Assembly (NCBI GenBank): GCA_039800145.1
Contig: JBDLRJ010000089.1
Location: 1 to 51,814, forward strand
Length of the DNA: 51,814 bases
Source of the DNA: Pseudomonadota bacterium
Lineage (GTDB): Bacteria; Myxococcota; Myxococcia; Myxococcales; Myxococcaceae
Direction of reading: 5' to 3'
Positions 1,103 through 21,519 of this stretch are shown piece by piece. The stretch's first letter is position 1, and the number at the start of each line of letters is the position of its first letter. The notes below the pieces were generated by a model. That model ran no database searches, was not told where the DNA came from, and saw only the letters and a list, made by a program, of their open reading frames with translations. The translations under genes and the position numbers were made by a program.

Positions 1103-1256
1103 CGGTCGTGAACGGGGGTATCCGGCGTCAAAATCTGCGGCAAAAGCGGTCACGCGTCCACACCGTGACAGTCGGTCGCCCTCCGTCGCTCCTCCCGGAT
1201 TGCCGCGCGGGGACCGGCGCCCCACCCTCGGCACCGCTGCAGAGCAAGGAGAGGCC

Positions 1257-2423: not shown

Positions 2424-3760
2424 CGCGCCGCAGGAAGATTGCCTACCTCGTCTCGTGGTTCCCGGCGCGGACGGAGACCTTCATCCTGCGAGAGCTGCAG
2501 CAGGTAGAGCGGCTCGGGGGTGCACCCGTCGTCTATGCCCTCGTGGGCGCGCGCGAGGACGCGGTGCACCCGGGCGCAGGGCCCTTCATCGCCCGCGCGC
2601 GCTACTTCCGGCACGCCTCGCGCGAGGTGCTGTCCGCCAACCTCCACTGGCTCCGGCGCTCTCCGCGGCGGTACCTCGGGACCTGGGCGCGGGCCATCGC
2701 CGGGAACCTGCGCTCGCCGGGCTTCCTCGCGCGGGCGCTGTACACGCTGCCGAAGGCGGCGGCAGTGGCGCGCGAGGTGGAATCCACCGGCGTGGAGCAC
2801 GTCCACGCGCACTGGGCCACGCACCCGGCGCTCGCGGGCTGGGCCGTGCACCGCCTCACCGGCATCCCGTGGTCCTTCACCGGTCACGCGCACGATCTCT
2901 ACGTCGACCGCACCATGCTCCGGCAGAAGCTGCAGGGCGCGGCGTTCGCCGTCACCATCTCCGAGTTCAACCGGGAGCTCCTCCGCGCCTGGTACGGCCC
3001 CGAGCTCGCGCGCAAGGTGGCCGTGGTCCGGTGCGGCATCGACGGGGAACAGTTCCGCCCGCGCACCGGGGACCGCCCACGCACGGGCCCCTTCACGCTG
3101 CTCTGCGTGGCCTCCCTCCGCGACTACAAGGGCCACCCCTGGCTCATCCAGGCCATGTCCCTGCTCAAGCGCCGCGGCCACCCCGTGCGGCTGCTGCTCG
3201 TGGGAGACGGCGAGGACCGCCTGGCCCTGTGCGAGCAGGTGGCGAAGGCCGGCCTGGCCTCCGAGGTGTCGTTCCTCGGCCACCAGCCGAGCGACCGCGT
3301 GGCCGAGCTCATGCGCGAGGCGGACGCGGTGGTGCTGCCCTCCGTGGTCACCTCCGCGGGGAAGATGGAGGGCATCCCCGTGTGCCTGATGGAGGCGCTC
3401 GCGTGCGAGCTGCCCGTCGTGGCCACGCGGCTGAGCGGGACACCGGAGCTCGTGAAGGACGGCGAGACGGGGCTGCTCGTCCCACCCGCGGACGCCGGTG
3501 CGCTCGCCTCCGCCATCGAGCGGCTCATCCGGGATCCCGCGCTGCGGACGCGGCTCGGACGCGCGGGCCGGCAGCACGTGCTCGCGGAGTTCGAGCTGCG
3601 CGCCAACGCGGAGAAGCTCTACGAGATGTTCATGGACGGCAGCGCCGCGCCGCTACGGCGCAAACGCAGCCCGGACGTCCGGGTGGGCAGCGAGCGCGTC
3701 CAGCGCCCGCCCGAGCAGCGTGATGCCCGGCTCGGTGCGGTGCCAGGTGGAGGCCCCTGA
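2405..3760 (+). CDS. GT4-family glycosyltransferase (second copy, 19-nt overlap with the upstream GT4 gene)
   Basis: An ATG at 2405 lies in the frame of track ORF 1409..3760 (MGNQLVTRRRKIAYLVSWFPARTETFILRE..). It contains LPSVVTSAGKMEGIPVCLMEALACELPVVATRLSGTPELVKDGETGLLV. The first 332 codons of the track ORF are Arg/Gly/Pro junk. The last ~35 codons overlap the convergent UDG gene, so the true stop is as given but the tail may be non-conserved. Confidence 0.85.
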   Translation: MGNQLVTRRRKIAYLVSWFPARTETFILRELQQVERLGGAPVVYALVGAREDAVHPGAGPFIARARYFRHASREVLSANLHWLRRSPRRYLGTWARAIAGNLRSPGFLARALYTLPKAAAVAREVESTGVEHVHAHWATHPALAGWAVHRLTGIPWSFTGHAHDLYVDRTMLRQKLQGAAFAVTISEFNRELLRAWYGPELARKVAVVRCGIDGEQFRPRTGDRPRTGPFTLLCVASLRDYKGHPWLIQAMSLLKRRGHPVRLLLVGDGEDRLALCEQVAKAGLASEVSFLGHQPSDRVAELMREADAVVLPSVVTSAGKMEGIPVCLMEALACELPVVATRLSGTPELVKDGETGLLVPPADAGALASAIERLIRDPALRTRLGRAGRQHVLAEFELRANAEKLYEMFMDGSAAPLRRKRSPDVRVGSERVQRPPEQRDARLGAVPGGGP

Positions 3761-4252
3761 CGGGTGCGGGAGGCACAGGCAGTCCATCTCCACCCCGTGG
3801 TAGCGGACGCGCTGCACCGTCCCCACCACCTCGGCGAGCGGCGCCTTCCGCCCCAGCACCTGCTCGATGGCGAGCGTCCCCACCGGGAGCACCAGCCTCG
3901 GGCGGAGCAGCGCCACCTCCCGCTCGAGGAACCCGCGGCAGCACGCAATTTCGTTCAAATCCGGCTTCCGGTCCCCGCCGCCCTTCGCCTTGCCGGGGAA
4001 GCAGCGGGCGACGGCGGCGAAGTAAACGCGCGCCCGCACCGTCTCCTCGTCCGCGCCCAGCGCCCGCTCGAACCAGCGGAAGAGCGTCTTCCCGGCCGTC
4101 CACGCGAAGGGCTTGCCGAACTGCCCCTCGCGCGGCCCCGGCGCCTGGCCCACGAGCAGCACGCGGCTCCTCACCGGGGGACCATGCACCACGGGCCCCA
4201 CCATGTTCGGGCACGCCCGGCAGGCGCGGAGTTCCTCGTGGAGGGCGAGCAT
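3653..4252 (-). CDS. Uracil-DNA glycosylase superfamily protein (family 4/5-like, Fe-S type)
   Basis: This is the C-terminal 199 codons of track ORF 3653..6874 (-), starting at the ATG at 4252: MLALHEELRACRACPNMVGPVVHG..VLLVGQAPGPREGQFGKPFAWTAGKTLFRWF..CLPHPSGASTWH. The G-x-APG motif A, the HPS motif B and the N-terminal CxxC are UDG-fold signatures. The rest of the 1073-aa track ORF is antisense junk. Confidence 0.8.
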   Translation of the reverse strand: MLALHEELRACRACPNMVGPVVHGPPVRSRVLLVGQAPGPREGQFGKPFAWTAGKTLFRWFERALGADEETVRARVYFAAVARCFPGKAKGGGDRKPDLNEIACCRGFLEREVALLRPRLVLPVGTLAIEQVLGRKAPLAEVVGTVQRVRYHGVEMDCLCLPHPSGASTWHRTEPGITLLGRALDALAAHPDVRAAFAP

Positions 4253-4348
4253 CGATGCGAGCGGAGCGGGCACGTTGCCCTTCTCCCTATCGCCCCACGC
4301 GCGCCCTTTCCAGCGCCGCGGAAGGGCGCTTATGTCCCGCGCGTCCGC

Positions 4349-7300
4349 ATGCGTCCCCACTCCCTCGTCCTCCCCGCAGCCCTGCTGTCCCTCCTCGCCG
4401 CCTGTCCGCGGCGCGTGGCCCCCGCGGCGGACGCGCTCGCCGAGAGCACCGTGCGGGCGCCGGCAGCCGATGCGCCCGGCCGCACCCTGGCCCTCGCCGG
4501 ACTGCGCGCCTGGTGGGTGGACGGCGACGCGGCACGTGCCACGGCGCTGTCGGCCCAGGCCCTCGAGCGGGCGCCGGGAGAGCCCTGGGCCCATTACCTG
4601 GAGCTCCAGCTCCAGCGGCGGGCAGGCCAGCCGGCCCGGATGGTGGAGGCAGCCCTCCGGCTGCTCGAGCGCTCCCCTGCCCACCCCCTCGCCGCCGTGG
4701 CCGCGCGCACGCTGTCGGAGGCCGCCGGCAGCTCCGCGGCGCTGGACGCCTCGTGGCTCCCGCGCGCGGAGGCGCTGCTGTCGGGCGGAGCGCTGCACGG
4801 CGACGCGGCGGGGCTGCTCCGGTCCGCCGTGGCCACCGCCGCCGCGGCCCGCGGTGACACCGCGCGGAAGGATGCTGCGCTCGCCGCGCTCGGTGCTCCC
4901 GCGGAAGGGACGCTGCTCGGCCCCCTCGCGGCGTGGAGCCTCCTGGACGTGGACGGCCCCACGCAACCCGAGCGGGATGGCGCCCTCCCGGAGTCCCTCG
5001 CAGCGCCTGCAGGCACCGTGGTGCCCCGCGTGCTGCCGCTCTCGCTGGGGCGCCTGTCGCTCCAGCCCGAGCCGGCGCGCGGAGACGTCTACCTTCTCGC
5101 GTTCGACGTGGAGGTGAAGGAGGCGGGCACGTTCGTGCTGCGCACCCACTCCGCCTCCGCGCTGTGGGCGTGGCTGGACGGCACGCCGCTGCTCGCGCGC
5201 CGCACCTTCGAGCGCGTGCTTCCGCTCACCGACGCCGCGGCGGTGCAGCTGGAGGCGGGGACACACCGGCTGCTGCTCAAGTGGACGAAGGACGGCCGCG
5301 CGGGAGAGGTGGGGCTGTCGTTCAGCCGCGAGGGCGCAGGTCAGGCGCCCACCTTCCGTCCCGCGCGCGGTCCTGCCCCGCGCTGGGCCGGCGGCCTCGT
5401 CACCGTGGAATCGCCCTCGCTGTTTCCGTCGGCCGCGGCGCTGGACGAGGTCCTCTCGGCGGAAGTGGGGCCGAGGCTCTCCGCGCTCGTGGCGGCGCGG
5501 GACGCGCTCCGGCGGGACGCGGACGGGCTGAAGCCGCTGCTGCTGCGGCTGGGAGAGGGCGAACCCTCCCCTGCGCTCCTCGCGCTGCGCGCCGAGGCGC
5601 AGCTGCAGGACCGCTCCCTGCCGACGCGGGTGGCCCACGGGCGCGCGGCGCGCGACCTGGACGCGGCGCTCTCGAGGGACGGCGGGGACGTGGCAGCCCT
5701 GCTGCTCCGCGCGCAGCTGGCGCTGGACGACGGGCGGTTGCCCGAGGCCGCGTCGCTCGTCTCCCGCGCACGCACGGCCGCCCCTGCCCCCTCGCCCGCG
5801 GTGGCACTCTTCGACGCGCGCGTGAACGCCGCGCTGGGGTTGGACGGTCTTGCAGACGAGCGCGCCGCGGAAGCGGCCGGGCTGCCGGGTGCCCCGTGCG
5901 ACGCGCTCGCCCTCCGGCTGGACCTCGCCCAGCGGCGCGGGGCAGCGGCGGTGCAGGAGACGCTCCTCCGGCAACTCTCCGGGTGCGCGGCGGAGCCCGG
6001 CCGGCGCGTCGAGTGGCTCCGGGCGCGCGGGGACCTCGCGGGCGCGGTGGCGCTCCAGGAGACCGTGGTGGCCGCGGCCGGTGCGGACCCTGCCCCCTCG
6101 CTGCAGCTCGCCTCGCTCCACGTGGCAGCGCGGGACTGGGACCGCGCCGAGGCGGTGCTGAAGGGCGTCACGGCGCGCTGGCCGCGCTCCGCCCCCGCCT
6201 TCAAGAAGCTGGGGGACGTGTACGAGCTCGCCGGCAGGCAGGACGCGGCGCTCGCGGCGCGCGACGAGGCGCTGCTCCGGGACGGGGCGGACCTGTCGCT
6301 CCGGCGGATGGTCCACCGGCAGAGGACCGGCAAGGAGCTCTTGGACGACCTCGCGGTAGGCACCGAGGAGGCGCTCGCGCGCTACGAGATGCGTCCCACG
6401 GACGAGGACTCCGCGAGCGTGCTGGTGCTGGACGCGGCCGCGGTGCGCGTCTACCCGGACGGCTCCCAGGTGGACCGCATCCACATCGTGAACAAGGCGC
6501 TCGACAGCGCCGGCGTGGCCCAGGTGGCGGAGGTGACCCTGCCGCCCGGCGCCCAGGTGCTCTCGCTCCACACGCTGAAGGCGGACGGGACGAAGCTCGA
6601 GCCCGAGCACTTCGAGCAGAAGGAGAGCATCAGCCTCCCCGGCGTCTCCGCGGGGGACATGGTGGAGTACGAGTACCTGCTCGCCCACCCCGCACGCGGC
6701 CCCGGCATGCCGGGCTTCACTGCGCCCAGTTTCTACTTCCAGCTCGTGGGGGAGCCGAACGCCTGGTCCACCTACACGGTGGCTGCACCGAGGGGGACCG
6801 GGATGCGCGTGGACGCGCGCCAGGTGACGGTGGAGCCGCCGTTCGTGCGAGGCGAGGAGGAGCTCTTCCACCACGAGGCGGAGCGCGTGGAGCCCTGGCG
6901 GGCAGAGCCGGACGGACCGTCGTCGCCCAACGAGTTCCTCCCCGTGGTGACGCTCGGCGCGGGGGCCGAGGGGCAGTCGTCACTGGCGGCCTCCTTCGCG
7001 GACGCGACGCTGGACCGGGCCCAGCGCACCTTCGAGGTGGAGGCCTTTGCGCGCGCGGCAGCGGCCGGCAAGACCGGGGACGCCGCGGTGCGCGCGGTGT
7101 ACGCGGCGGTGATGGAGAGGATTGCCGGGCGGGACGCAGGCCTCGGTCAGACCGCCGCGGCCACGCTCGCCGAGGGGCGCGGGAGCCGGACGCTGCTCTT
7201 GAAGGCGGCGCTCACCGCGCTCGGCATGGACGCGCGCGTGGTGGCGGTGCGGACCTCGGGCGTGGACGCCGGGCCGGTCCGCTTCCCCAGCGAGGCGCTC

Positions 7301-8116
7301 ATGCCCTACGCCTGCGTGCGCGTGACGCTGCCGGATGGCAGCTTCCGCTGGCTGGACGGGATGGTGCGCTTCGCCCCCTACGGCGAGTTGCCGGAGCAGG
7401 CCACCTCGCGGGAGGCCTGGGTGCTGCCCGAGCCGGGGAAGGCCGTGGAGGCCACGCGCACGCCTGCGCCCTCGCCGCTGGTCCCCAAGCAGGTGCGGCT
7501 GACGCTGGAGCTGTCCCCGGAGGGCACGCTGCGCGGCGAAGGCGCCGAGACGCTCGCCGGGTTCGAGGCGGCGCAGTTCTCCGAGCAGCTCGAGGCCATC
7601 CCCCCGGACCAGCGCAAGCAGGCGCTGGAGCAGGCCTTGTCGCGCTACTTCGGCGGGGCGGAGCTCTCCGAGGTCATCCTGGATGCACCGCGCGCGGTGG
7701 GCGCCACGCTGGTGCTGAAGTACCGGTTCCAGGCGCCGGGCTTCGCGCGCCGCGAGGGCAACGCGCTGGTGCTCGGTCCGCTCACGTTCCCCACGCAGCT
7801 CAGCCGGCGGTACGTGCAGGTGCGGACGCGCAAGACGCCGCTCGTGCTGGACAGCAGCGAGGGCGTGGCGCTGGAGGCCACGCTGCAGCTGCCCGAGGGG
7901 GCGACGCTGTCGGATCCGCTCGCGGGACTGAAGGTGGACGGGCCGCTCGGGACGTTCGAGCACGGCGAGCGCCAGCAGGGACGCACCGTCACCGTGCGGG
8001 AGTCGCTCCAGCTGCGGCTCGGGCGCGTGCCGCCGGGGGCCTACGAGGACTTCGCGCGCTTCGCGGGCCAGGTGGACCTGGTGCAGGCGAGGGATCTCGT
8101 CGTCCGCCTGCCGTAG
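4349..8116 (+). CDS. Large lipoprotein: Ala-rich TPR-like N-terminal half plus a DUF3857 / transglutaminase-like (DUF3858-type) C-terminal half
   Basis: An ATG at 4349 lies in the frame of track ORF 3764..8116 (MRPHSLVLPAALLSLLAAC, a lipobox). The C-terminal half contains SVLVLDAAAVRVYPDGSQVDRIHIVNKALDSAGVAQVAEVTLPPGAQVLSLHTLKADGTKLEPEH, which matches the DUF3857 pattern. It also contains a TGase-core-like LAEGRGSRTLLLKAALTALGMDARVV. Confidence 0.7.
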   Translation: MRPHSLVLPAALLSLLAACPRRVAPAADALAESTVRAPAADAPGRTLALAGLRAWWVDGDAARATALSAQALERAPGEPWAHYLELQLQRRAGQPARMVEAALRLLERSPAHPLAAVAARTLSEAAGSSAALDASWLPRAEALLSGGALHGDAAGLLRSAVATAAAARGDTARKDAALAALGAPAEGTLLGPLAAWSLLDVDGPTQPERDGALPESLAAPAGTVVPRVLPLSLGRLSLQPEPARGDVYLLAFDVEVKEAGTFVLRTHSASALWAWLDGTPLLARRTFERVLPLTDAAAVQLEAGTHRLLLKWTKDGRAGEVGLSFSREGAGQAPTFRPARGPAPRWAGGLVTVESPSLFPSAAALDEVLSAEVGPRLSALVAARDALRRDADGLKPLLLRLGEGEPSPALLALRAEAQLQDRSLPTRVAHGRAARDLDAALSRDGGDVAALLLRAQLALDDGRLPEAASLVSRARTAAPAPSPAVALFDARVNAALGLDGLADERAAEAAGLPGAPCDALALRLDLAQRRGAAAVQETLLRQLSGCAAEPGRRVEWLRARGDLAGAVALQETVVAAAGADPAPSLQLASLHVAARDWDRAEAVLKGVTARWPRSAPAFKKLGDVYELAGRQDAALAARDEALLRDGADLSLRRMVHRQRTGKELLDDLAVGTEEALARYEMRPTDEDSASVLVLDAAAVRVYPDGSQVDRIHIVNKALDSAGVAQVAEVTLPPGAQVLSLHTLKADGTKLEPEHFEQKESISLPGVSAGDMVEYEYLLAHPARGPGMPGFTAPSFYFQLVGEPNAWSTYTVAAPRGTGMRVDARQVTVEPPFVRGEEELFHHEAERVEPWRAEPDGPSSPNEFLPVVTLGAGAEGQSSLAASFADATLDRAQRTFEVEAFARAAAAGKTGDAAVRAVYAAVMERIAGRDAGLGQTAAATLAEGRGSRTLLLKAALTALGMDARVVAVRTSGVDAGPVRFPSEALMPYACVRVTLPDGSFRWLDGMVRFAPYGELPEQATSREAWVLPEPGKAVEATRTPAPSPLVPKQVRLTLELSPEGTLRGEGAETLAGFEAAQFSEQLEAIPPDQRKQALEQALSRYFGGAELSEVILDAPRAVGATLVLKYRFQAPGFARREGNALVLGPLTFPTQLSRRYVQVRTRKTPLVLDSSEGVALEATLQLPEGATLSDPLAGLKVDGPLGTFEHGERQQGRTVTVRESLQLRLGRVPPGAYEDFARFAGQVDLVQARDLVVRLP

Positions 8117-8136
8117 CGCGGCGAGGCTTCCACGGC

Positions 8137-9327
8137 TCACATCAGCTTCGCGACCACCTCGCCGTGCAGCTCGAGCCCGCGCGGGGTGAGGCGCAGCCGC
8201 TCGTCCTCCCACGCGGCGAATCCCCCCGAGACCAACCGCTCGGCCTCTGCGAGCCGCGGCGCCGCCTCCATCCCGTGGGCCTCGCACGCCGCGCGCAGCC
8301 GGATGCCGGTGCGCAGCCGGAGCCCCATGGCGAGCCGCTCGTGGAAGGCCTCCTCGTCCGAGAGCGCCTCCGTGCTCGCCTCGGGCAGCTCGCCGCGCGC
8401 CACGCGCTGGAGGTACCGCTCGGAGTTGCGCTCGTTCTCGTAGCGCCTGCGGCCGATGAGCCCCGTCGCCCCGACGCCGGCCGCGAGGTATTCCCCGCCC
8501 GTCCAGTACAGCGCGTTGTGGCGCGAGTGGCGGCCGGGCCGCGCGAAGTTGGACACCTCGTAGCGCTGGAGCCCCGCGCCCTCGAGCTCCTCTGCCAGTG
8601 CGCGCGCCATCTCGACCGACAGCGCATCCTCCGCGGACTGGAGTACCCCGCGCGCCTGCCGCTTGCTGAAGGGCGTGTCCGCTGCGAGCACCTCGCGCTC
8701 CACCGTCAGCGCGTACGCCGACACGTGCTCCACGCCGAGCCCAACCGCCCGCCGCGCGTCCTCGCGCACCTCCTCCACCGTCTGTCCCGGCGCACCGTAG
8801 ATGAGGTCCACGGAGACGGTCGCCGCCCCGGCTGCCCGCGCCGCTCGGACCGCCGTCTCCGCCTGCTCGGGCGTGTGGCCGCGTCCCAGCGTGCGCAGCA
8901 CGTGCGCCTGGAAGGACTGCACGCCGAGCGAGAGGCGGTTGATGCCTGCGTCCACGTAGCCCTTGAAGCGGCCGGCGTCCGCCACCTCGGGGTTGGCCTC
9001 GAGCGACACCTCCGCCCACGGCACGATGCCCTGGAGCTCACGCACGTGGCCGAGCACGCGCGCCACGTCCTCGGGGGCCCAGAGGGACGGGGTCCCCCCG
9101 CCGATGAAGACGCTCTCGAGCGGCCGCCCCGCGAGCGACGGCGCCTGGCCGAGCCGCAGCGAGAGCTCCGCGCACACCGCGTCGGCGTAGGCGCGGCCCG
9201 GCACCTCGCGGCGGATGGCCACGGCGAAGTCGCAGTACGGGCAACGCGCGAGGCAATACGGGAAGTGCACGTAGAGCCCCAGCCGCGCAGCGGCCAGGCC
9301 CGTCAGTGCATCAGCGGTGACGTCCAC
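8137..9327 (-). CDS. hemW: Radical SAM heme chaperone HemW (HemN-like, oxygen-independent coproporphyrinogen oxidase family)
   Basis: Track ORF of 396 aa. It has the CxxxCxxC radical-SAM motif (YCLARCPYCDF), GGGTPS, ANPE and INRLSLGVQSF blocks, and the full HemN-family length. Confidence 0.9.
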   Translation of the reverse strand: MDVTADALTGLAAARLGLYVHFPYCLARCPYCDFAVAIRREVPGRAYADAVCAELSLRLGQAPSLAGRPLESVFIGGGTPSLWAPEDVARVLGHVRELQGIVPWAEVSLEANPEVADAGRFKGYVDAGINRLSLGVQSFQAHVLRTLGRGHTPEQAETAVRAARAAGAATVSVDLIYGAPGQTVEEVREDARRAVGLGVEHVSAYALTVEREVLAADTPFSKRQARGVLQSAEDALSVEMARALAEELEGAGLQRYEVSNFARPGRHSRHNALYWTGGEYLAAGVGATGLIGRRRYENERNSERYLQRVARGELPEASTEALSDEEAFHERLAMGLRLRTGIRLRAACEAHGMEAAPRLAEAERLVSGGFAAWEDERLRLTPRGLELHGEVVAKLM

Positions 9328-10267
9328 GGGGTGTCTCGAGCTTCTGCAGGCGCGCGCGCAGCGCCGTAGGGTTGGAGAGGACCTGCCTCAGTTCCTCCAA
9401 CTCGTCCTGCAGCGCCGAGATGTCCACCGTCAGGGTCGTCACCTCGGTGAACTGCGTGCGCACGTCCGTGTGGTCGGACTCCGACTGGAGCTCCGCGAGC
9501 TGCTCGGAGAGTTCCACGCACTGCTTCCGGGAGGACTCCAGCTTCCGGGCCAGCCCGTCCCGCTCCTTCTCCGCCACGGCGAGCCGGTGCTTGAGCTCCT
9601 TGAGGTCCCCGTCCTGGCGCTCGAGCTCGAGCTCGCGGTCGTCCGCCACCTCCTGGGCCTGGAGGGCCTGCTCGCGGAGGGCATCGGCCTCGGCCTGTGC
9701 CTCGTCCACGGCAAGACGGAGCCCGGCGAGCTCCGCCTCGAGCACCACCCGCGCGTTGGCCTCCTTGGCGAGCTTGCGCTCCATCTCGGCGCGCGCCGCG
9801 CGGTCGTCCGGGACCTTGCGCGCCAGGGCTGCCTGCTCCCGCAGCCGCCGCTCGAGCTCCGCGTTCTCGGCCTTGAGCTTCACGAGAGAGCCGTCGATGC
9901 GGTTGCGCTTGTCGCGCTCGGACGAGAGCTGGTTCTCCACCGCGGCGAGATCCCTCGTGAGCTCCTTCCGCTCCCGCTCGGCCTCCTTCGCATCCACCGC
10001 TGCAGCCTTCGCCTCGGCCGCGGCCGCCTTGCGGCGATCCTCTGAATCGGCGAGCGACGCGCGGGCACGCTCGAGCTCGGAAGCCAGGCGGGCATACAGG
10101 CCGCGGGCGCGCTGCAGCGTGTCCGACTTCAGCTTCACCACCTCGCGGAGGTACTCGAGCTTCTCCTCCGGACCTCCCCCCCGGGGCGGCTTCGGCTCGG
10201 GCGGTTCCGAGAACGGATCGTCAACGGCGTTGCGACGCGTCGGCAGTGGGGGCGGGGCGCTGCTCAT
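9311..10267 (-). CDS. Coiled-coil protein of unknown function (E/R/A/L-rich, heptad-like)
   Basis: Track ORF of 318 aa. A Pro-rich N-terminus is followed by about 270 aa of uninterrupted coiled-coil-type sequence (..ELERRLREQAALARK..LELERQDGDLKELKHRLAVAEKERDGLARKLE..). Its 3' end overlaps the hemW start by 17 nt, implying co-transcription. Confidence 0.65.
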   Translation of the reverse strand: MSSAPPPLPTRRNAVDDPFSEPPEPKPPRGGGPEEKLEYLREVVKLKSDTLQRARGLYARLASELERARASLADSEDRRKAAAAEAKAAAVDAKEAERERKELTRDLAAVENQLSSERDKRNRIDGSLVKLKAENAELERRLREQAALARKVPDDRAARAEMERKLAKEANARVVLEAELAGLRLAVDEAQAEADALREQALQAQEVADDRELELERQDGDLKELKHRLAVAEKERDGLARKLESSRKQCVELSEQLAELQSESDHTDVRTQFTEVTTLTVDISALQDELEELRQVLSNPTALRARLQKLETPRGRHR

Positions 10268-10315: not shown

Positions 10316-11716
10316 ATGCGACTACTCCCCCACCTCGCCCTGCTCCTGCTCGTGTCCGCTGCACCGTCCGCCGAGGCGGCGAAGACGAAGGCACGGGCGC
10401 AGAAGGAGCGGCCCGCGCTCCCGGCGTGGAGCCCGCCCTCGACGCCGCTGCTCCAGCCCGGCGACAAGGTGGTCATCCTCGGGGACAGCATCACCGTGGC
10501 GCACACCTGGACGCGCAACGTGGAGAGCTACTTCCGGCTGCGCCACCCGGACATCTCGCTGGTGTTCATCAACGCGGGCATCGGGGGGCACACGGCGCAG
10601 GACGGGCTCAACCGGCTGCAGCGGGACGTGCTCGCGCACAAGCCATCCGTGGTGCTGGTGAACTTCGGGATGAACGACGCGGGGTACCCGGCAGGGACGG
10701 ACGGCGGCGCGTTCGAGCGGAACATGGAGGAGATCCACCGCCGGCTCGAGGCCGCGGGGGTCCGCCTGGTCGCGTGGATTGAGCCGACGCCGTGTGAGCT
10801 CGAGGGGGCGGGCAAGCGCAGCGGCGTGCGCGCGCGGGACGAACGGCTCGCCGCCTGGGGCCCGCACGTGCTTGGCCAGCCGAAGCGCACGGGGCGCGTG
10901 GTGGTGCCGTGGCGGGTGCCGGTGTTGGACGCCATGGCGAGCTGGCGCGCGGCCACGGGCAACCCGCTCATCCCGGACCGCATCCACCCCTCTGCGCCCG
11001 CGCACGGGGTGATGGCGGCGAAGGTGCTGCAGGGACTCGGCTACCCGGTTGCGACGCCCGCGGTGACGAGCCGCGTCGAGAAGGGGCAGCTGCGCACGCG
11101 CGTCGCCGCGGGAGTGGCCGAGGTGTCCGTCCCGTTCGACGGGAACGCGCCCGTGAAGGTGGATCTGCGCCGCGCGGTGCCGCCGCTGCTCTTCACGCAG
11201 GGGCCCGAGGAGGCGAAGAACCTGGGAAGCGCCGAGGTATCCGCGCTTCGTGCACTGCCGTGGAAGGTGACGGGGCTCCCGGAAGGAAGGAGCTACCGCG
11301 TGTTGCTCGGGACGGAACAGGTGGGCGTGTTCTCGTCCGCGGAGCTCGCCGAGGGCGTGGACCTCATGGCGCAGGCGCAGCGGGTGAAGCCGCCGGCGGT
11401 GAACCCCACCATGGGCACCACGGATGTGGCGCAGGGCCCCGATGCGCTGATGGAGCAGTGCGCTGACGGCCCCGGCAATCCCTTCACGCGGGACTTCGAC
11501 TGCGCGTTCCGGCTGCTGTTCCAGAAGGACCAGCTGCGGCTGGCGCTGCGGCCCGAGCGGACGTACGGCTTCCCGGCGTTCGTCCCGGAATACCGCGAGG
11601 AGTTCAACGCGCTCGCGGGACGGTGGATCGAGGCAACCGACACCGAGCTCGCCGTGAAGCTGGCTGCGTTCCGCGACCGGCCGCACCTGCTGCAGTTGGT
11701 GCCGGTGGGCCAGTAG
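10316..11716 (+). CDS. Secreted SGNH/GDSL-family hydrolase with a C-terminal extension
   Basis: Track ORF of 466 aa. It has a signal peptide (MRLLPHLALLLLVSAAPSAEA). SGNH blocks I (VVILGDSIT), II (NAGIGGHT), III (NFGMND) and V (DRIHP) are present. Confidence 0.85.
   Translation: MRLLPHLALLLLVSAAPSAEAAKTKARAQKERPALPAWSPPSTPLLQPGDKVVILGDSITVAHTWTRNVESYFRLRHPDISLVFINAGIGGHTAQDGLNRLQRDVLAHKPSVVLVNFGMNDAGYPAGTDGGAFERNMEEIHRRLEAAGVRLVAWIEPTPCELEGAGKRSGVRARDERLAAWGPHVLGQPKRTGRVVVPWRVPVLDAMASWRAATGNPLIPDRIHPSAPAHGVMAAKVLQGLGYPVATPAVTSRVEKGQLRTRVAAGVAEVSVPFDGNAPVKVDLRRAVPPLLFTQGPEEAKNLGSAEVSALRALPWKVTGLPEGRSYRVLLGTEQVGVFSSAELAEGVDLMAQAQRVKPPAVNPTMGTTDVAQGPDALMEQCADGPGNPFTRDFDCAFRLLFQKDQLRLALRPERTYGFPAFVPEYREEFNALAGRWIEATDTELAVKLAAFRDRPHLLQLVPVGQ
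11348..11707 (+). repeat. Direct repeat copy 1 (360 bp): the 3' end of the intact SGNH gene
   Basis: Aligns without gaps to 13587..13946 (offset 2239 bp). I count 15 mismatches out of 360. Homology breaks sharply at both ends. Confidence 0.9.
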
Positions 11717-11733
11717 CCGTCACGGATGCTGCC

Positions 11734-13500
11734 TCACTGCGCACACCGGAAGCCAATGAGATCATTCCGAACCGTTGCATTGATGCCGGAACGGAAGGAC
11801 GAAAGGAGGTACTCCTCAACTTCGTCGCCCCAGGAACCGCCACGGATTTCTCCGCTTTCTGCAGTCCACTCCCACACATTCCCTGACAGGTCATGGATGC
11901 CGTTCAGGGATGCCCCCAGAGTGTACGTACCCACAGGCGCCGTGCCGTCGCTGGATTTCCACTTCGCGCGTGTAGCGTCTGGTCGCTGACCGCCCCACGG
12001 GTATCGCGTCCGCCCACCGTTGCTCGCTGCGAAGTGCCACTCGTTCCATCCCGGGAGCCTCTTTCCCTGCGCCTTGCAGTACGCATCCGCCTGCATCCAG
12101 TCCACGCAGTTGATGGGGTGCTGCTCCTTGCCACTCACCTTCCAGTTGCACTGTTCACCCGTATTCGGCTCCGTGCACTTTCCGGTGTTCACGCATTCGA
12201 AGTAGGCAGCCACCGTCACTTCCGTCACGTCCAGCTTAAATGGGAGCATTCGCACGCTCCCCGCAATGGCCACCATCCCTGCGCTCTTCCCTCTGCCTGG
12301 GTTCGCCGTCAGCACCGTCACCTTTCCATCTTCCAGTTTCAGCTCTTCTCGCCACTCACCGCTGCCCACGTGCACTGCGACTTCCCGGCTGCAGACCGGC
12401 ACCTTCAGCGTGGCCCCGGCCTCCCCCACCTCCTTGCCGTCCACTCGCACCGTGGTTTCCAGGTCGTTCCCCTTCTCGTCCACGGCGTTCACCTTGAGTC
12501 CCGCCAACTTCGGCTTCGCCACGAGACGCAAAGTCCGCCTTTCGCCCGGCTTGATGGCGATCCGCTCCCCGGTGCGCACGTAACACCCGTCCGACACCGC
12601 GACCTCGACGGTCCCTTCGTCCACTTCCCGCGCGCTGATGGGCGTCTTGCCGATGTCCGCGCCGTCCACGCTCACGGACAGTCCTGGCACGTCCGTCTCG
12701 ATGGTCAGCCACCCGAACCGAGGCGCGAGCGTCCCACGCACCACCGCCCCCTTCGTTGCAATGCCGTTCAGTCGCGAAGCGGAGTAGCGCTCCTTCTGGA
12801 AGAGCACCTCGTGCCGTCCACTCGCAATCCGCTTGCTGCACGGCGTGGACTGGCAGAGCAGTTCGCCGTCCACGCTCACCGTGGCCCCGGCAGGCTCGCT
12901 CTCGAACTTCACCACCACCTCCTCGCCCTCCTGCACGACCACGTCCTTGCCCGAGTCTCCGAAGCTGCCCAGCTGCACGGTGGGCTGCGCCTTCGTTGCC
13001 GCCGGCCTCGCGTTCCCGAGCCCGAACGCAGTTCGGAGCAACTCCTCCGTCGTCGGGCGAATTAACTCCAGCAGCGCCAACTCCTTCGCCGCGATCACGC
13101 GCTTCTGCCCGAGCAACTGCCCCTTCCGGGTCTCGTAGACCTTCAGCGACAGCACCAGCTGCCCGTCGAGAGCCGTCACGTTCCCCGTGACGAACAGGTC
13201 CACGCCGAGGTTACGGGCCGTCTCCACCTCGCACTCCCCCTCCTGGCACTTGCCGCCCGTCGCCTTCAGCACCTCCAGCATGTTCTCACGCGTGATGACG
13301 ATGGCCCCTTCTGCCCGCGTCACGTCCGCCACCGCTCCGCGGCAGTCGTCCGACAGCACGCCGGGTGCCCGGAGTTGCGTCCCGGAATCCAGCGAGAACT
13401 CGAGGACAGCGATCTTCTTCCCGTCCAGCGCTCCAGCCCTCTGCGCCGACGCGGCGAGAGACAGGAGGCCGAAGACAGCGACGACGAAGCGCGTGGACAT
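11734..13500 (-). CDS. Exported multidomain protein: CsgG/LpoB-like N-terminal module (tentative), 2 PEGA domains and a C-terminal FGE-sulfatase (SUMF1-type) domain
   Basis: Track ORF 11734..13560, with the start taken at ATG 13500 (MSTRFVVAVFGLLSLAASAQ signal peptide). PEGA motifs are FESEPAGATVSVDGELLCQSTPC and ETDVPGLSVSVDGADIGKTPI. The FGE-domain blocks are HPINCVDWMQADAYCKAQGKRLPGWNEW, NVWEWT, RGGSW and IGFRC. A/T-ending codons (gaa, gga, cga, att, aat) are visibly more frequent than in neighbouring genes. Confidence 0.8.
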   Translation of the reverse strand: MSTRFVVAVFGLLSLAASAQRAGALDGKKIAVLEFSLDSGTQLRAPGVLSDDCRGAVADVTRAEGAIVITRENMLEVLKATGGKCQEGECEVETARNLGVDLFVTGNVTALDGQLVLSLKVYETRKGQLLGQKRVIAAKELALLELIRPTTEELLRTAFGLGNARPAATKAQPTVQLGSFGDSGKDVVVQEGEEVVVKFESEPAGATVSVDGELLCQSTPCSKRIASGRHEVLFQKERYSASRLNGIATKGAVVRGTLAPRFGWLTIETDVPGLSVSVDGADIGKTPISAREVDEGTVEVAVSDGCYVRTGERIAIKPGERRTLRLVAKPKLAGLKVNAVDEKGNDLETTVRVDGKEVGEAGATLKVPVCSREVAVHVGSGEWREELKLEDGKVTVLTANPGRGKSAGMVAIAGSVRMLPFKLDVTEVTVAAYFECVNTGKCTEPNTGEQCNWKVSGKEQHPINCVDWMQADAYCKAQGKRLPGWNEWHFAASNGGRTRYPWGGQRPDATRAKWKSSDGTAPVGTYTLGASLNGIHDLSGNVWEWTAESGEIRGGSWGDEVEEYLLSSFRSGINATVRNDLIGFRCAQ

Positions 13501-13586
13501 GGGCGGTGAATACCATGCCCACAGCCGGGCCCTCCCACGGGGCCGAGCCCCTGGGCCCACTTCTCACGAAGGCGAATGCGGCGCGT

Positions 13587-13952
13587 GCCGAGGGCATGGA
13601 CCTCATGGCGCAGGCGCAGCGCGTGAAGCCGCCGGCGGTGAACCCCACCATGGGCTCCACGGATGTGGCGCAGGGCCCCGATGCGCTGATGGAGCAGTGC
13701 GCTGACGGCCCCGGCAATCCCTTCACGCGGGACTTCGACTGCGCGTTCCGGCTGCTGTTCCAGAAAGACCAGCTGCGGCTGGCGCTGCGTCCCGAGCGGA
13801 CGTACGGCTTCCCGGCGTTCGTCCCGGAGTACCGCGAGGAGTTCAACGCGCTCGCGGGCCGGTGGGTGGAGGCGACGGACACTGAGCTCGCCGTGAAGTT
13901 GGCTGCGTTCCGGGACCGGCCTCACCTGCTGCAGTTGGTGCCGGTGCCCTAG
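13587..13952 (+). pseudogene. Orphan 3' fragment (about 120 codons plus stop) of an SGNH-hydrolase gene; direct repeat copy 2
   Basis: Translates in frame to AEGMDLMAQAQRVKPPAVNPTMGSTDVAQGPDALMEQCADGPGNPFTRDFDCAFRLLFQKDQLRLALRPERTYGFPAFVPEYREEFNALAGRWVEATDTELAVKLAAFRDRPHLLQLVPVP*. This is near-identical to the C-terminus of the 10316..11716 product. No upstream SGNH catalytic part is present. Upstream of 13587 the frame is antisense to the FGE-PEGA gene start. Confidence 0.8.
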
Positions 13953-14830
13953 GTGTCGTCTTCGGCGACGTAGGTGTGCAGCCGATCCAGGCGCAGCACC
14001 CTGCCGGACGGGGTCTGCTCAAACACGTCCGCGAACCGGGCGCCGTAGACGACAGATTCCCAGTCGTACGCGTGGCGCGCGTGGACCGTCTGCATGAGGA
14101 CCTCGTCCGTGCCAGACACCGTGACGATGAGCGCTGCATTGGCAGCGCGGACCTCGTCCGGGGACAACCCGTGGAGCGGGCTGGATGCGTCGATGGTGTG
14201 CATCAGGGTCCAGGAGAGCGCGAACATCACGCTGCTGTCGCGTTGCAGCGGCAGCTCATGCATCCGTCGGAACCGGGCGCCCTCGGCAGTCACCTCGTCG
14301 CGAAGGAGGACCAGCCGCGCGGTGGCTGACATGATCCGGTTGTTCCGCTCGTTGGCAATCCGCACCATGAGCACCGGCGCGTCGTTCACGGTCCCGACCA
14401 ACGCGGTGTGCGAGAAGCGAATCCGCGCCGTGGGACGCGCGAACTTGGCGAACACGAGCCCCGTCGTCAGCGCCGCGGACAGCATCCCGCCGAAGGCCTC
14501 GAGCGAGACAACGAGGTTGGCCGCGGTGCCACGCGGGGTCATCACCCCGTACCCGATGGTGGCCATGGTCTGGACGCTGAAGAAGAAGGCGTCCTCGAAG
14601 TTGCCCGGATGCGCCTGGGCGATGACGTCCCCCAACGCCAGGTACACGCAGGCGAACAGGACGTTGTAGCCAACGAAGACCAGGGCCAGGAACGCGGTGG
14701 TCGCCCCCCAGGAGGCGGTCATCAGCCGGTGGAACAGGTCCTCGAGAGGGTGGTCCCCCACGCCCACCCGGCGCAGGAAATCCGGGCGATCGAGTTGGGA
14801 GACCCGCGGTGCTGGCGTGACTTCACGCAT
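13949..14830 (-). CDS. Inward-rectifier-type potassium channel (KirBac family)
   Basis: Track ORF of 293 aa. It has two TM helices flanking a pore helix with the selectivity filter TIGYG (FFFSVQTMATIGYGVMTP), followed by a cytoplasmic Ig-like Kir C-terminal domain (VLMVRIANERNNRIMSATARLVLL..). Confidence 0.88.
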   Translation of the reverse strand: MREVTPAPRVSQLDRPDFLRRVGVGDHPLEDLFHRLMTASWGATTAFLALVFVGYNVLFACVYLALGDVIAQAHPGNFEDAFFFSVQTMATIGYGVMTPRGTAANLVVSLEAFGGMLSAALTTGLVFAKFARPTARIRFSHTALVGTVNDAPVLMVRIANERNNRIMSATARLVLLRDEVTAEGARFRRMHELPLQRDSSVMFALSWTLMHTIDASSPLHGLSPDEVRAANAALIVTVSGTDEVLMQTVHARHAYDWESVVYGARFADVFEQTPSGRVLRLDRLHTYVAEDDT

Positions 14831-15006
14831 AGGCGGGAAAGGTACGACGAAACGCGGCCGTCAGGGCACCGGCACCGACTGCAGCAGGTACGGGTGGTCG
14901 CCGAGCTGCTCTTCAATTCGAAGATCCCGGAACGCAAGCGAGGACGTCCCCGGAAGAACGCCAGGCGCCCTACCCGCTGAGCAACGCTTGCCGCCCCAAG
15001 GCCGGG

Positions 15007-17646
15007 GTGAGACCCTCGCGCCTCCCCATGCCCACGCTTTTCACGCTCTCCAACGGTCTCACCGTCGTCCACGAAGCGCACCACGCCGCACCGGTGGTGG
15101 CCGTCCAGTGCTGGGTGAAGGTCGGCAGCGCAGACGAGCGCGAGGACGAGGCGGGACTCGCCCACCTCCACGAGCACATGCTCTTCAAGGGCACCGCCAC
15201 GCGCGGGCCGGGGGAAATTGCCGCCGCCATCGAGGCGTCCGGTGGACACATCAACGCCTGGACGTCCTTCGATCAGACCGTCTACCACGTGGTGCTCGCC
15301 TCCCGGTTCGCGCGCATGGGCTTCGACGTGCTCTCGGACGCGCTCCGCCGCTCCGCCTTCGACGCGGGCGAGCTCGAGCGGGAAATCGAAGTGGTCTGCG
15401 AGGAGATCAAGCGCAGCGCGGACACCCCCGCGCGCCGGGCCTCGCGTGAACTCTACGACGTGAGCTTCACCACCCACCCGTACCGGCGACCCGTCATCGG
15501 CTGGGAGGGCACCGTCCGCAGCTTCACCCGCGAGAAGGTGCTCGGCTTCTACGCGCGCCACTACGCGCCGGAGAACATCGTCCTCGTCGTCACCGGAGAT
15601 CTCACCGAGGCCGACACGCGCGCGCTCTCGGAGCAGTACTTCGGCGGCGACTGGCAGCGCCCGTGGGTGACCCACCCGCCGCGCCCCGGGGAGCCCCCGC
15701 GCGAGGGCAACCGCGTGCGCCTCAAGTCGGACGACGTGAAGGAGGCCATCGTCCACGTGGGCTTCCCGCTCTGCGCAGTGGACCACCCGGACGTCCCCGC
15801 GCTCGACGTGCTCGCCATGCTCGTGGGCCAGGGCGACAGCTCCCGGCTCGCGCTCGAGGTGAAGCGCCGCAGGCAGCTCGTCCGCTCCGTCCACTGCTCC
15901 TCCTACACCCCGGAGGACCCCGGCCTCTTCACCCTCTCGCTCACGCTGCAGCCGGAGAAGCTCACCGAGGCGCTGGACGCCTCTCTCGCGCTGCTCCTCC
16001 ACGCGCGCAGCCATCCCGTGGACGAGGGCGAGCTGGCCACCGTGAAGGCGCTCGTGGAGGCCGAGGGCATCTACCAGCGCGAGACGGTCCAGGGCCTCGC
16101 CGAGAAGCTCGGCTACCACGCCTCCGGGAAGGGAGGCCTCGAGGCCGACGCGACGTACCGCGCCGCCGTCGCAGCGCTCACCCCCGCGGATCTCCAGCGC
16201 GTGGCACAGGCATGGCTCCGGCCAGAAGTTGCCTCGCTCACCGCGCTGCTGCCCGCCGGCACCGCTTTCACCGAGGACGACGCCCGCGCCGTGCTCGCGC
16301 GCGCCCATGCACCGGCCTCCGTCACCGTCCCGGCCCGCAAGCTCGCACCGGACGGCGCCCACACGCGCAGCGCCGGCGCCTCCGCCTCGGGCCAGCCGCT
16401 CGACCTACGCCTCTCCTCCGGCGCGCGGCTCATCGTCCGGCCGGAGCCCGGCATCCCGCTGGTCGCCCTCCGCGGCGCCTTCGTGGGTGGCAGCCGCCTC
16501 GAGGCGGACGAGACGTGCGGCCTCCACCACCTGCTCGCGCGCACCCTCACCCGCGGTACGCCGACGCTGGACGCCGAGCAGGTGTCGCACACATTGGACG
16601 ATCTTGCCGGGAGCCTCTCTGCCGCCGCGGGGCGCAACTCCCTCTCCGTCCGCGCCGAGTTCCTCTCGCGCCACCTGCAGCGCGGCTTCCGGCTCTTCTC
16701 GGACGTGACCCTGCGCCCCACCCTGCCCCCGGCAGAGCTGGAGCGCGAGCAGCAGCTCGTCCTGCAGGACATTTCCACCCGCGACGACAAGCCCTCGGGC
16801 CTCGCCTTCCACCTCTTCCACCAGGCCCTCTTCGAGCGCCACCCGTACCGGCTCCAGGTGGGCGGCGAGGCGGACTCCATCTCCGCGCTCACCCGCGAGG
16901 CCCTGCTCGCCCACCACGCCCGCTGGATGACGCCCTCGCGCCTGACGCTCGCGGTGGTGGGGGACGTCGATCCCCGCGAGGTGGTGGACCTGGCCGAGGA
17001 GTGCCTCGCCGCACCGAACGCCCCGCACGCGCCCGAGCCGACGCTGGCCGACGAGCCCGCGCCGACGTCCCCGCGCGTGAAGGTGCGGGAGCTGCCGCGC
17101 GCGCAGGTGCACCTCGTCTACGGGTTCCGCGGCGTCACGATGCGGGATCCCCGCCGCCGCGCGCTCGAGGTGCTCTCCACCGTCCTCTCCGGCCAGGGCG
17201 GCCGCCTCTTCGTGGAGCTGCGCGACAAGAAGTCGCTCGCGTACAGCCTCTCCAGCTACAGCGTGGAGGGACTCGAGCCCGGCTACTTCGCCGTCTACAT
17301 CGGCACCAGCCCGGAGAAGGTCCCCGAGGCGCTCTCCGGCATCCGCGCGGAGCTCCAGAAGGTGCGTGATGGCCGCATCAGCCAGGCGGAGCTGGACCGC
17401 GCGCGGCACCACCTCGTCGGGGCGCATGAGATCGGCCTGCAGCGCAACGGCGCCCGCGCCGGGCTGCTCGCGCTCGAGGCCGCCTACGGGCTCCCCGTCC
17501 AGGACGTGAAGGCGTTCGCCGAGGAGGTGATGGCCGTCACCGCGGATGAGGTCCGCGCCGTGGCGGAGGCGCTCATCACCTTCGACCGCTCGGCCCTGGG
17601 GGCGGTGGGCCGGGGGGTGGAGTCGCTCCTTCCGGCTCCACGCTGA
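15007..17646 (+). CDS. M16-family zinc metallopeptidase (insulinase/pitrilysin-like), four-domain double-length form
   Basis: Track ORF of 879 aa. The inverted zinc motif HxxEH is present (GLAHLHEHMLFKGT), and the second half repeats the inactive M16 fold. The start is GTG 15007, or ATG 15028 (MPTLFTLSNG..). Confidence 0.88.
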   Translation: MRPSRLPMPTLFTLSNGLTVVHEAHHAAPVVAVQCWVKVGSADEREDEAGLAHLHEHMLFKGTATRGPGEIAAAIEASGGHINAWTSFDQTVYHVVLASRFARMGFDVLSDALRRSAFDAGELEREIEVVCEEIKRSADTPARRASRELYDVSFTTHPYRRPVIGWEGTVRSFTREKVLGFYARHYAPENIVLVVTGDLTEADTRALSEQYFGGDWQRPWVTHPPRPGEPPREGNRVRLKSDDVKEAIVHVGFPLCAVDHPDVPALDVLAMLVGQGDSSRLALEVKRRRQLVRSVHCSSYTPEDPGLFTLSLTLQPEKLTEALDASLALLLHARSHPVDEGELATVKALVEAEGIYQRETVQGLAEKLGYHASGKGGLEADATYRAAVAALTPADLQRVAQAWLRPEVASLTALLPAGTAFTEDDARAVLARAHAPASVTVPARKLAPDGAHTRSAGASASGQPLDLRLSSGARLIVRPEPGIPLVALRGAFVGGSRLEADETCGLHHLLARTLTRGTPTLDAEQVSHTLDDLAGSLSAAAGRNSLSVRAEFLSRHLQRGFRLFSDVTLRPTLPPAELEREQQLVLQDISTRDDKPSGLAFHLFHQALFERHPYRLQVGGEADSISALTREALLAHHARWMTPSRLTLAVVGDVDPREVVDLAEECLAAPNAPHAPEPTLADEPAPTSPRVKVRELPRAQVHLVYGFRGVTMRDPRRRALEVLSTVLSGQGGRLFVELRDKKSLAYSLSSYSVEGLEPGYFAVYIGTSPEKVPEALSGIRAELQKVRDGRISQAELDRARHHLVGAHEIGLQRNGARAGLLALEAAYGLPVQDVKAFAEEVMAVTADEVRAVAEALITFDRSALGAVGRGVESLLPAPR

Positions 17647-21079: not shown

Positions 21080-21517
21080 ATGGTGTTCCTGCGAACCGCA
21101 CTCGTCTTCTTTTCCCTGAACGCGCCGCTCGCCTGGGCCGGCGATACCGCTGGGGCCGCCCAGGGTCCCATCCGCCTGCCGCCTGCCGAGGCGAAGGCGT
21201 TCCGGAAGGCGCTCGCGGACGCGAGGCTGCTGTCCCACGACGAAGACGCAAAGGGTGCGGTCATCCAGTGCCTTCGCCGCAATGAACCGCCCAGCCGGTT
21301 CTACAGCGCGAGCATCTCGTTCCCGAAGGAGGACCCGCGCGGCGCAGAGAATGCCCGGTCGTTCCAGGCGCTGTGCAAGCTCGTGGAGAAGCGGTTCGGG
21401 GACCTCGCCCTGGGCGCCGCGGGCTCCACCGGAATCGAGACCCCGCCCCTGCGCATCCAGGGCAAGGGGGCGGAGGCCGTCGTCGAGTACGCGCCGTACG
21501 AGCCGGACAACTATTGA
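21080..21517 (+). CDS. Small secreted protein of unknown function (145 aa)
   Basis: An ATG at 21080 lies in the frame of track ORF 20525..21517. It has the signal peptide MVFLRTALVFFSLNAPLAWAGD and a balanced composition (K, F, Y, E present). Its stop lies 2 nt before the next start. Confidence 0.6.
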   Translation: MVFLRTALVFFSLNAPLAWAGDTAGAAQGPIRLPPAEAKAFRKALADARLLSHDEDAKGAVIQCLRRNEPPSRFYSASISFPKEDPRGAENARSFQALCKLVEKRFGDLALGAAGSTGIETPPLRIQGKGAEAVVEYAPYEPDNY

Positions 21518-21519
21518 GC

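Follow-up and report, generated by a model that had tools for sequence, protein, structure and literature searches.

How does a single gene come to lie between two copies of the 3′ end of its neighbor, at a site that shows no sign of a mobile element? The question is raised by a 51,814-nucleotide contig (JBDLRJ010000089.1 of assembly GCA_039800145.1; the whole of this stretch is referred to below as the window), whose host belongs to an uncultured myxobacterium-like or Myxococcota-like lineage. An intact SGNH/GDSL hydrolase gene of 466 aa (10316..11716, plus strand; Pfam PF13472/PF00657; AlphaFold2 (AF2) model with a pLDDT of 89.7) carries toward its end a stretch, copy A, which is found again about 2.2 kb downstream as an orphan tail, copy B, and between the two copies there is a minus-strand gene, referred to here as the cargo (11734..13500), encoding a secreted protein of 588 aa with PEGA and formylglycine-generating enzyme (FGE)-sulfatase domains, the latter of the C-type-lectin fold (PF08308, PF03781). 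The first-pass annotation, made from the window alone, took this to be the footprint of a 2239-bp segment that was imported from a related genome with an SGNH 3′ end on board and that displaced the resident 3′ end. The explanation that we consider probable, with a fair amount of doubt left, is an insertion with long target duplication (ILTD), produced by break repair or illegitimate joining, with the differences between copies A and B contributed by homologous recombination with closely related strains.

The insert and its empty sites

The loci compared were the window, related metagenome contigs (designated by L-numbers) and the NCBI assembly GCA_041442895.1, the comparison with the last covering gene order only and not its DNA. 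A scan of genomes for relatives returned one locus and a scan of metagenomes four, of which two, L010 and L012, can be aligned to the locus of the window. The locus occurs in three states. In the first, the SGNH gene is followed directly by an M16 peptidase gene, as in L004 (89% nucleotide identity) and L001/L010 (73%). In the second, the SGNH gene is convergent on a Kir-type potassium channel gene, with M16 next wherever the contig extends that far, as in L022 (87%), L009 (83%) and GCA_041442895.1, in which the gene order is SGNH, Kir, M16. The third is the arrangement of the window, which recurs in L002 and L003 (two JGI samples; 99.98% identical); these differ from the window at 3–4 positions in 14–19 kb and at none within the repeat or the insert. 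The second state is the empty site that the first-pass annotation had predicted to exist in relatives.

The geometry of the two junctions can be read from these alignments. Copy A (11339..11707, plus strand) comprises the last 123 SGNH codons minus the final one and adjoins the gene body without a break on its left side, and the window ceases to align with L004, L009 and L022 at 11703–11707, beyond which the last two codons and the stop of the window gene (11708–11716, GQ*) are new sequence contributed by the insert. The gene in the window consequently ends in VPVGQ*, whereas copy B, L022 and L009 end in VPVP* and L004 in VPIP*. Copy B (13578..13952, plus strand), a 5′-truncated SGNH tail with the ancestral VPVP* end, is colinear with the SGNH tail and Kir gene of L009 and L022: the window from 13587 to 14046 is 90.2% identical, gap-free, to L022 1045–1504, with the SGNH and Kir stops overlapping alike (CCCTAGG), and the window from 13587 to 14830 is colinear with L009 2290–3533. 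This colinearity identifies B plus Kir as the ancestral right context and the SGNH body plus A as the ancestral left context. With the ancestral end retained in B, where it is joined to the Kir stop in the manner of L022, and the ancestral left side retained in A, the geometry is that of a target duplication. The overlap of the SGNH-tail and Kir stops amounts to 4 bp, through the palindrome CTAG, in both the window (13949–13952) and L022 (1407–1410); in L009 and GCA_041442895.1 the SGNH–Kir overlap is 22 bp.

The inserted segment itself (11708..13578) measures 1871 bp, has 65.4% G+C and lacks terminal repeats, and it is absent from L022, L009 and GCA_041442895.1. It is gene-sized, extending at most 26 bp past the stop of the cargo gene and 78 bp upstream of its ATG. 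Homology to other members of the cargo family extends no more than ~20 bp beyond the stop and ~20 bp ahead of the ATG, close to the gene limits, so that the inserted unit is essentially one gene. The claim that the insertion had left no mobility gene behind was borne out. Neither an integrase nor a transposase is present among the called genes from ~9 kb upstream to ~5.7 kb downstream of the insert, all of which were annotated with Pfam; the only tRNA gene of the window (31101–31194) is 17 kb away, with none near the insert; and no terminal inverted or direct repeats were found at the insert ends, where comparisons scored no better than shuffled sequences. A transposon, an insertion sequence or an integrase-borne island was rejected on these grounds. 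A phage vector was likewise rejected, the matches in IMG/VR being FGE domains of only 32% identity, as was a defense-system cargo, for which PADLOC gave no match.

As all of the locus sequences are short-read metagenome assemblies, it has been considered that the path from SGNH through A, the cargo and B to Kir is false and was created during assembly from several co-assembled strains or from a cycle in the graph. A and B are identical over 109 nt (11418–11526), a possible point for switching between graph paths, and L022, a strain with the SGNH–Kir arrangement, co-occurs in the sample of L003 (as does L008, a contig discussed further below). These features would suit an artefact; against it, identical junctions are shared by the window and two further contigs, which come from two samples, both junctions are coherent, with the SGNH gene in frame with its new stop and the cargo gene intact, and A and B are resolvable by 15–18 differing sites, so that an artefact is regarded as highly improbable.

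The ancestor of the window lineage had the SGNH gene convergent on Kir. A gene-sized segment of ~1.87 kb was joined one codon ahead of the SGNH stop, leaving the last 369 bp of the SGNH gene on both sides of the insert as a direct target duplication, such that copy A stayed on the gene and received the new GQ* end while copy B stayed on Kir as a truncated orphan. In the ILTD explanation, the insertion would result from break repair or illegitimate joining, without a dedicated mobile-element enzyme. The differences between A and B would then go back to homologous recombination between closely related strains, for which two routes can be envisaged: the incoming DNA may have been anchored by its homology to the SGNH tail, or a crossover may have occurred inside B while the already formed insertion was spreading. 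In either case, part of at least one copy would be a different allele, which had evolved inside an intact gene. Accordingly graded, the presence of an SGNH tail on the donor DNA is plausible and unproven; of the 2239-bp import, it is the insertion that stands, and the target-duplication geometry taken by itself has no need of an imported tail.

Divergence of the two tail copies

The direct repeat pairs 11339–11707 with 13578–13946 over 369 nt, gap-free and at an offset of 2239, with 18 mismatches (95.1% identity). Its first 8–9 nt are similar only in patches, which places the left edge of copy B within 13579–13587. Over the 360 nt from 11348–11707 and 13587–13946, an exact recount agrees with the first-pass annotation: the 15 mismatches fall in 14 codons, of which 11 differ synonymously and 3 by conservative replacements (V/M, T/S and I/V). 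The nonsynonymous and synonymous divergences (dN and dS) are 0.013 and 0.138 by the method of Nei and Gojobori (NG86) and 0.009 and 0.296 by maximum likelihood, with a dN/dS ratio of ~0.1. Under nine neutral mutation models (kappa 1–4, GC-to-AT bias 1–5), the expected synonymous fraction is 0.26–0.39, and the probability of at least 11 synonymous codons among 14 ranges from 5e-5 to 3e-3, significant in all nine. When the changes are polarized by the outgroups, the branch leading to B alone shows 5–6 synonymous changes versus 0–1 replacement (P 0.002–0.016). Neutral decay of B after the duplication is ruled out by this synonymous excess, as had been proposed from the codon comparison alone.

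In one alternative, the tail was duplicated in place, the insertion producing two identical tails, and B was kept by purifying selection as a functional, stand-alone protein of 118 aa. The changes on the B branch are of the kind that this alternative requires, and the sole replacement among them, V to M, introduces an ATG at 13596, which is four codons into the repeat and from which the frame stays open to the native stop (13596–13952) and at which the JGI pipeline has called a gene. The surroundings of this ATG speak against it, in that a GAGGG motif ends 1 nt ahead of it, which is a poor spacing, and no promoter-like site was found. The tail domain has 14 matches in 1.84 billion representative proteins, 10 of them the C-termini of proteins of 282–488 aa and the remaining 4 short (76–324 aa) and maybe partial gene calls, so that the three or four candidates for a tail domain standing alone are probably all partial; as a stand-alone protein it appears to have no clear precedent. 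In the AF2 model of the SGNH protein the tail fragment consists of a helical segment and a terminal β-strand (458–463), and this strand, as read from the secondary structure only, may join a sheet formed by residues 250–340, which are missing in B. In addition, a functional orphan would leave the uneven divergence described next unexplained unless gene conversion were added. Overall, we consider it unlikely that B is functional and regard it as most likely a non-functional by-product of the insertion.

The divergence between the copies is distributed unevenly, with 6 differences in the left 272 nt (2.2%) as against 9 in the right 88 nt (10%; permutation P ~0.03). This unevenness suggests that homologous exchange took place, either afterwards or at the same time, and not a single clean import of 2239 bp. 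Across the full repeat, A and B differ from each other at 15 positions, from L022 and L004 at 30–36 and from L009 at 49–53, and they have in common 23 states that are absent from L004. A and B are thus sisters over the full repeat, from which it follows that, barring concerted evolution, the duplication is younger than the splits from L022, L004 and L009. As no available allele is as close to either copy as the other copy is, any donor would have to be a very close relative.

A different timing is one in which the insertion is old, predates the split from L022, L009 and GCA_041442895.1, and was lost repeatedly when A recombined with B, gene conversion having later homogenized the left part of the repeat. 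Direct repeats do favor precise deletion, and the last 88 nt of the repeat are as different between A and B (9 differences) as between A and L022 (10) or B and L022 (13). The price is at least three independent precise losses in place of one gain, and the sister relation of A and B, the GC3 (G+C at third codon positions) of the cargo gene, still the lowest in the neighborhood, and the restriction of the arrangement to near-clonal contigs all argue against it; an old insertion is rated as quite unlikely.

The exactness of the geometry also brings to mind a single crossover of the Campbell type, by which a 2239-bp circle, consisting of a fragment of the SGNH tail and the FGE-PEGA gene, would have integrated into the resident tail by homologous recombination, with two hybrid copies of the tail around the cargo as the automatic outcome. 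This would account for the 2239-bp unit, for A lacking only the last codon and B lacking the 5′ part, and, by making all of the A–B differences allelic, for the synonymous excess. It requires, on the other hand, a pre-formed chimeric circle with both junctions already in it, which shifts the problem one step back, and the unit contains no replication or mobilization function; no circle of this kind was seen, a negative that is limited by the lack of reads. Such a circle seems to us improbable.

Several points weigh against the ILTD explanation and have to be set beside it. Recombination between A and B would restore the “empty” state exactly, so that the polarity of the event rests on parsimony and on the similarity of A to B. 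Over the last 88 nt, A and B are no closer to each other than to other lineages, and the single replacement in B, which makes an ATG in front of a frame that stays open, hints at function. A comparison of both copies with L022, L004 and L009, made in search of an imported one, gave nearly equal distances, neither copy being clearly closer; no donor locus was found, nor any relative of >95% identity without the insert. The short-read origin of every sequence compared belongs here as well. Finally, the enzymology of ILTD is not known even for the published cases (PMC2853133).

The SGNH–M16 interval

The insert is not the only accessory sequence at this site. The Kir gene (13949..14830, minus strand; IRK type; PF17655, PF07885 and PF01007) is absent from L004, L001 and L010; in L004, the 3282 bp of the window from 11704 to 14985 are replaced by 28 bp. 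Homology to the Kir-less relatives resumes at ~14986, in the right flank (14986..17646, plus strand), which holds the M16 peptidase gene (15028–17646). Kir is an older layer of the variable interval, itself an insertion relative to L004 and L001; that it is missing from the closest relative had not been foreseen by the first-pass annotation. Depending on the relative, the interval between SGNH and M16 holds nothing, Kir, Kir with a MazF-type toxin pair, or FGE-PEGA with Kir; the toxin pair is that of L009, where genes for a ribbon-helix-helix (RHH) antitoxin-like protein and for a PemK/MazF toxin lie beyond Kir (3644–4095). A search for Kir travelling with the SGNH tail elsewhere gave a negative outcome, as Kir homologues occur in unrelated contexts and a 118-aa open reading frame (ORF) beside Kir in L018 is unrelated to B.

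A third copy of the tail, copy C, is located ~30 bp upstream of the Kir start as an inverted and diverged relic (14860..14940, minus strand), whose robust core (14863–14904) is 83–87% identical to A and B, with a local-alignment score that was reached by none of 200 shuffles. In frame it reads AFRD, nine extra codons and then PYLLQSVPVP*. Its end, TGA-CG, is that of the Kir-less L004, yet the window-lineage sequence GGTGCCGGTGCCC is present in it. Kir is thereby bracketed by inverted copies of the tail, B on the plus and C on the minus strand; in L009, copy C is not present upstream of Kir. Only A, B and the short relic C of the repeat occur in the 51.8-kb window, a statement that applies to the window and not to the whole genome.

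With Kir also inserted and relic C as a third tail copy on its far side, the locus has to be seen as a nested hot spot and not as the product of a single event. The view of one clean event, in which relic C was overlooked, has to be given up for that reason. The SGNH–M16 interval is a small variable islet, at which two uptake events have left copies of the SGNH tail. A hairpin or terminator as the cause of the hot spot was rejected, since DNA folds at the junctions are no better than those of shuffled sequences (z −0.9 to +0.7) and terminator-like sites are absent. An imperfect 18-bp palindrome, CACCTGCTGCAGTTGGTG, centered on CTGCAG, is found at the end of the tail (11684–11701 and 13923–13940), in the first case close to the junction of copy A with the insert (J1), and also inside the core of relic C; it folds no better than shuffled sequence.

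Elsewhere in the window, diverged direct repeats (21901–22446 and 27824–28354; 73–84% identity, ~5.9 kb apart) lie inside two long ORFs at 21373–23652 and 27817–29949, which have no Pfam match; these look like paralogues.

The cargo family and comparison with known systems

The composition of the cargo gene is atypical, as had been noticed from the window alone. Its G+C content is 65.1%, against 73.4% for the window and 73–74% for the 5-kb flanks, and its GC3 is 0.82, compared with 0.90–0.95 in 11 neighboring genes, falling to 0.64 over the last 90 codons. In 60-nt lines from 11761 to 12240, low G+C is found as reported, with the range of 50–62% given by hand counts becoming 52–68% upon recomputation. 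The first-pass reading of this composition as a mark of foreign origin holds in part: the composition is atypical, and part of the low G+C is due to a variable region of the retroelement type and not to foreign origin alone. The nearest homologues of the cargo protein are 71–73% identical, in a family with many paralogues in related metagenome-assembled genomes, and PF03781 covers residues 433–607 of the 608-aa ORF. A second FGE-sulfatase-like domain is encoded in the window (35168–35596, minus strand) and is 32% identical to the cargo domain by tblastn.

The variable region becomes apparent in comparison with L008 (JGI 3300044701, contig Ga0451755_0002345), the contig from the same JGI sample as L003 and L022, which carries over its length (1–9401) a complete diversity-generating retroelement (DGR) made up of two PEGA-FGE target genes, bAvd, a template repeat (TR) and a reverse transcriptase (RT; RVT_1). 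Its variable regions (VRs) are at ~1293–1403 and ~5324–5438, bAvd at 5540–5950, the TR at ~5927–6049 and the RT gene at 6155–7273 (minus strand). Of the mismatches in the two VRs, 18 of 20 and 16 of 21, respectively, coincide with TR adenines, the signature of a DGR. In the same contig, a target gene and an Avd-like gene are duplicated ~4.03 kb apart, and one of the VRs contains an in-frame TGA, so that the called gene ends early.

The cargo gene of the window is 77.6% identical in nucleotides, over its full length, to a DGR target gene of L008, and its C-terminal motif RGGSW...GFRCAQ* is common to the family and to the translated TR. When aligned with the TR and the two VRs of L008, the 3′ end of the cargo gene (11737..11850, minus strand), the part of lowest G+C, which abuts J1, proves to be homologous to the VRs. 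It differs from the L008 TR at 16 of 30 adenine positions and at 14 of 80 other positions; with the latter number, the L008 TR is not the cognate template of the window gene. The pattern fits either a different cognate TR, one not seen here, or a VR that is no longer serviced. A DGR inside the window was rejected, as no RT, Avd or TR is present in its 51.8 kb. On these comparisons, the cargo is a member of a retroelement-diversified family.

A more speculative scheme draws the hot spot and the cargo family together. In it, the end of the SGNH gene would act, repeatedly and without a recombinase, as a capture site that copies the tail at each capture, directly for B with FGE-PEGA and inverted for C with Kir; the transcript-sized FGE-PEGA unit, with its variable region next to J1, would have entered as cDNA made by a DGR RT and target-primed at staggered nicks; and B, with its newly acquired ATG, would be a small gene of recent origin. 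Priming of this kind would lead one to expect a long and variable target duplication. Taken as a whole, we consider this scheme very improbable.

Among the systems described previously, the arrangement is closest to ILTD, which was identified as small gene blocks lying between long direct repeats of 46–423 bp and 93–100% identity without a mobility gene (Furuta, Abe and Kobayashi 2010, Nucleic Acids Research, PMC2853133) and was also described by Nobusato et al. (2000, Gene 259:99). In common with these cases, the repeat exceeds 30 bp (369 bp, 95%) and is present as a single copy at a related empty site with both flanks aligned, the insert is below 20 kb (1.87 kb), is of atypical composition and is accompanied by no transposase, integrase or tRNA, and the repeat overlaps the 3′ end of a gene, as it does in some of the published cases. 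The published cargoes are restriction-modification genes, and DNA breakage by the nuclease itself was suggested by the authors as the driver (PMC2853133), whereas the cargo here is a PEGA-FGE gene, not a restriction-modification gene, and encodes no nuclease. A further difference is that the mismatches between the repeats in the window indicate purifying selection or an exchange of alleles, neither of which has been reported for the earlier cases.

Homology-facilitated illegitimate recombination is reported to have been described in transformable bacteria by de Vries and Wackernagel in 2002. The process, named in PMC3240628, resembles the event considered here in using one homologous anchor, for which the SGNH tail would serve, and no mobile-element functions, the other end being joined illegitimately at sequences that have hardly any homology or none. 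It differs in that it usually leads to a replacement or deletion at the target and not to a 369-bp duplication. A microhomology of 3–12 bp would be expected at its illegitimate joint. At the junction of the insert with copy B (J2), only 5 of 8 nt are matched (13579–13586 versus 11340–11347), in patches, and J1, as compared with L008, is ambiguous for microhomology.

The arrays of polymorphic toxins (Rhs, CdiA, type VI secretion system), in which an incoming module recombines through a conserved 3′ part and the old 3′ end becomes a downstream orphan, are the C-terminal displacement model that was invoked by the first-pass annotation. The orphan in such an array is a different toxic tip with its immunity gene, whereas here it is the same tail with three conservative replacements; moreover, the SGNH protein does not belong to the polymorphic toxins, and the cargo is on the opposite strand.

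With regard to the cargo, DGR variable proteins of the C-type-lectin/FGE fold are known (PMC6328139, PMC5006420, PMC11661182, bioRxiv 10.1101/2023.09.22.558884), and the cargo protein is like them in its C-terminal FGE-sulfatase-type domain with RGGSW...GFRCAQ and in having a homologue, in L008, beside bAvd, RT and TR. The window gene varies mostly at adenine positions of the L008 TR; unlike DGR loci, the window supplies none of the retroelement parts.

The finding is thus best filed under the known but rare class of ILTD and is not categorically new, the new element being the gene of a DGR-family variable protein as the cargo. As ILTD is a poorly understood way of gaining genes that works without a mobile-element enzyme and has been documented almost only for restriction-modification genes, a non-nuclease cargo, together with empty sites in a Myxococcota-like lineage, argues for the generality of the route. 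It also shows how new chromosomal sites can be seeded with paralogues of retroelement-diversified surface proteins, and it provides an example of a 3′-end hot spot that gathers accessory genes and whose tail relics get called as hypothetical proteins by annotation pipelines.

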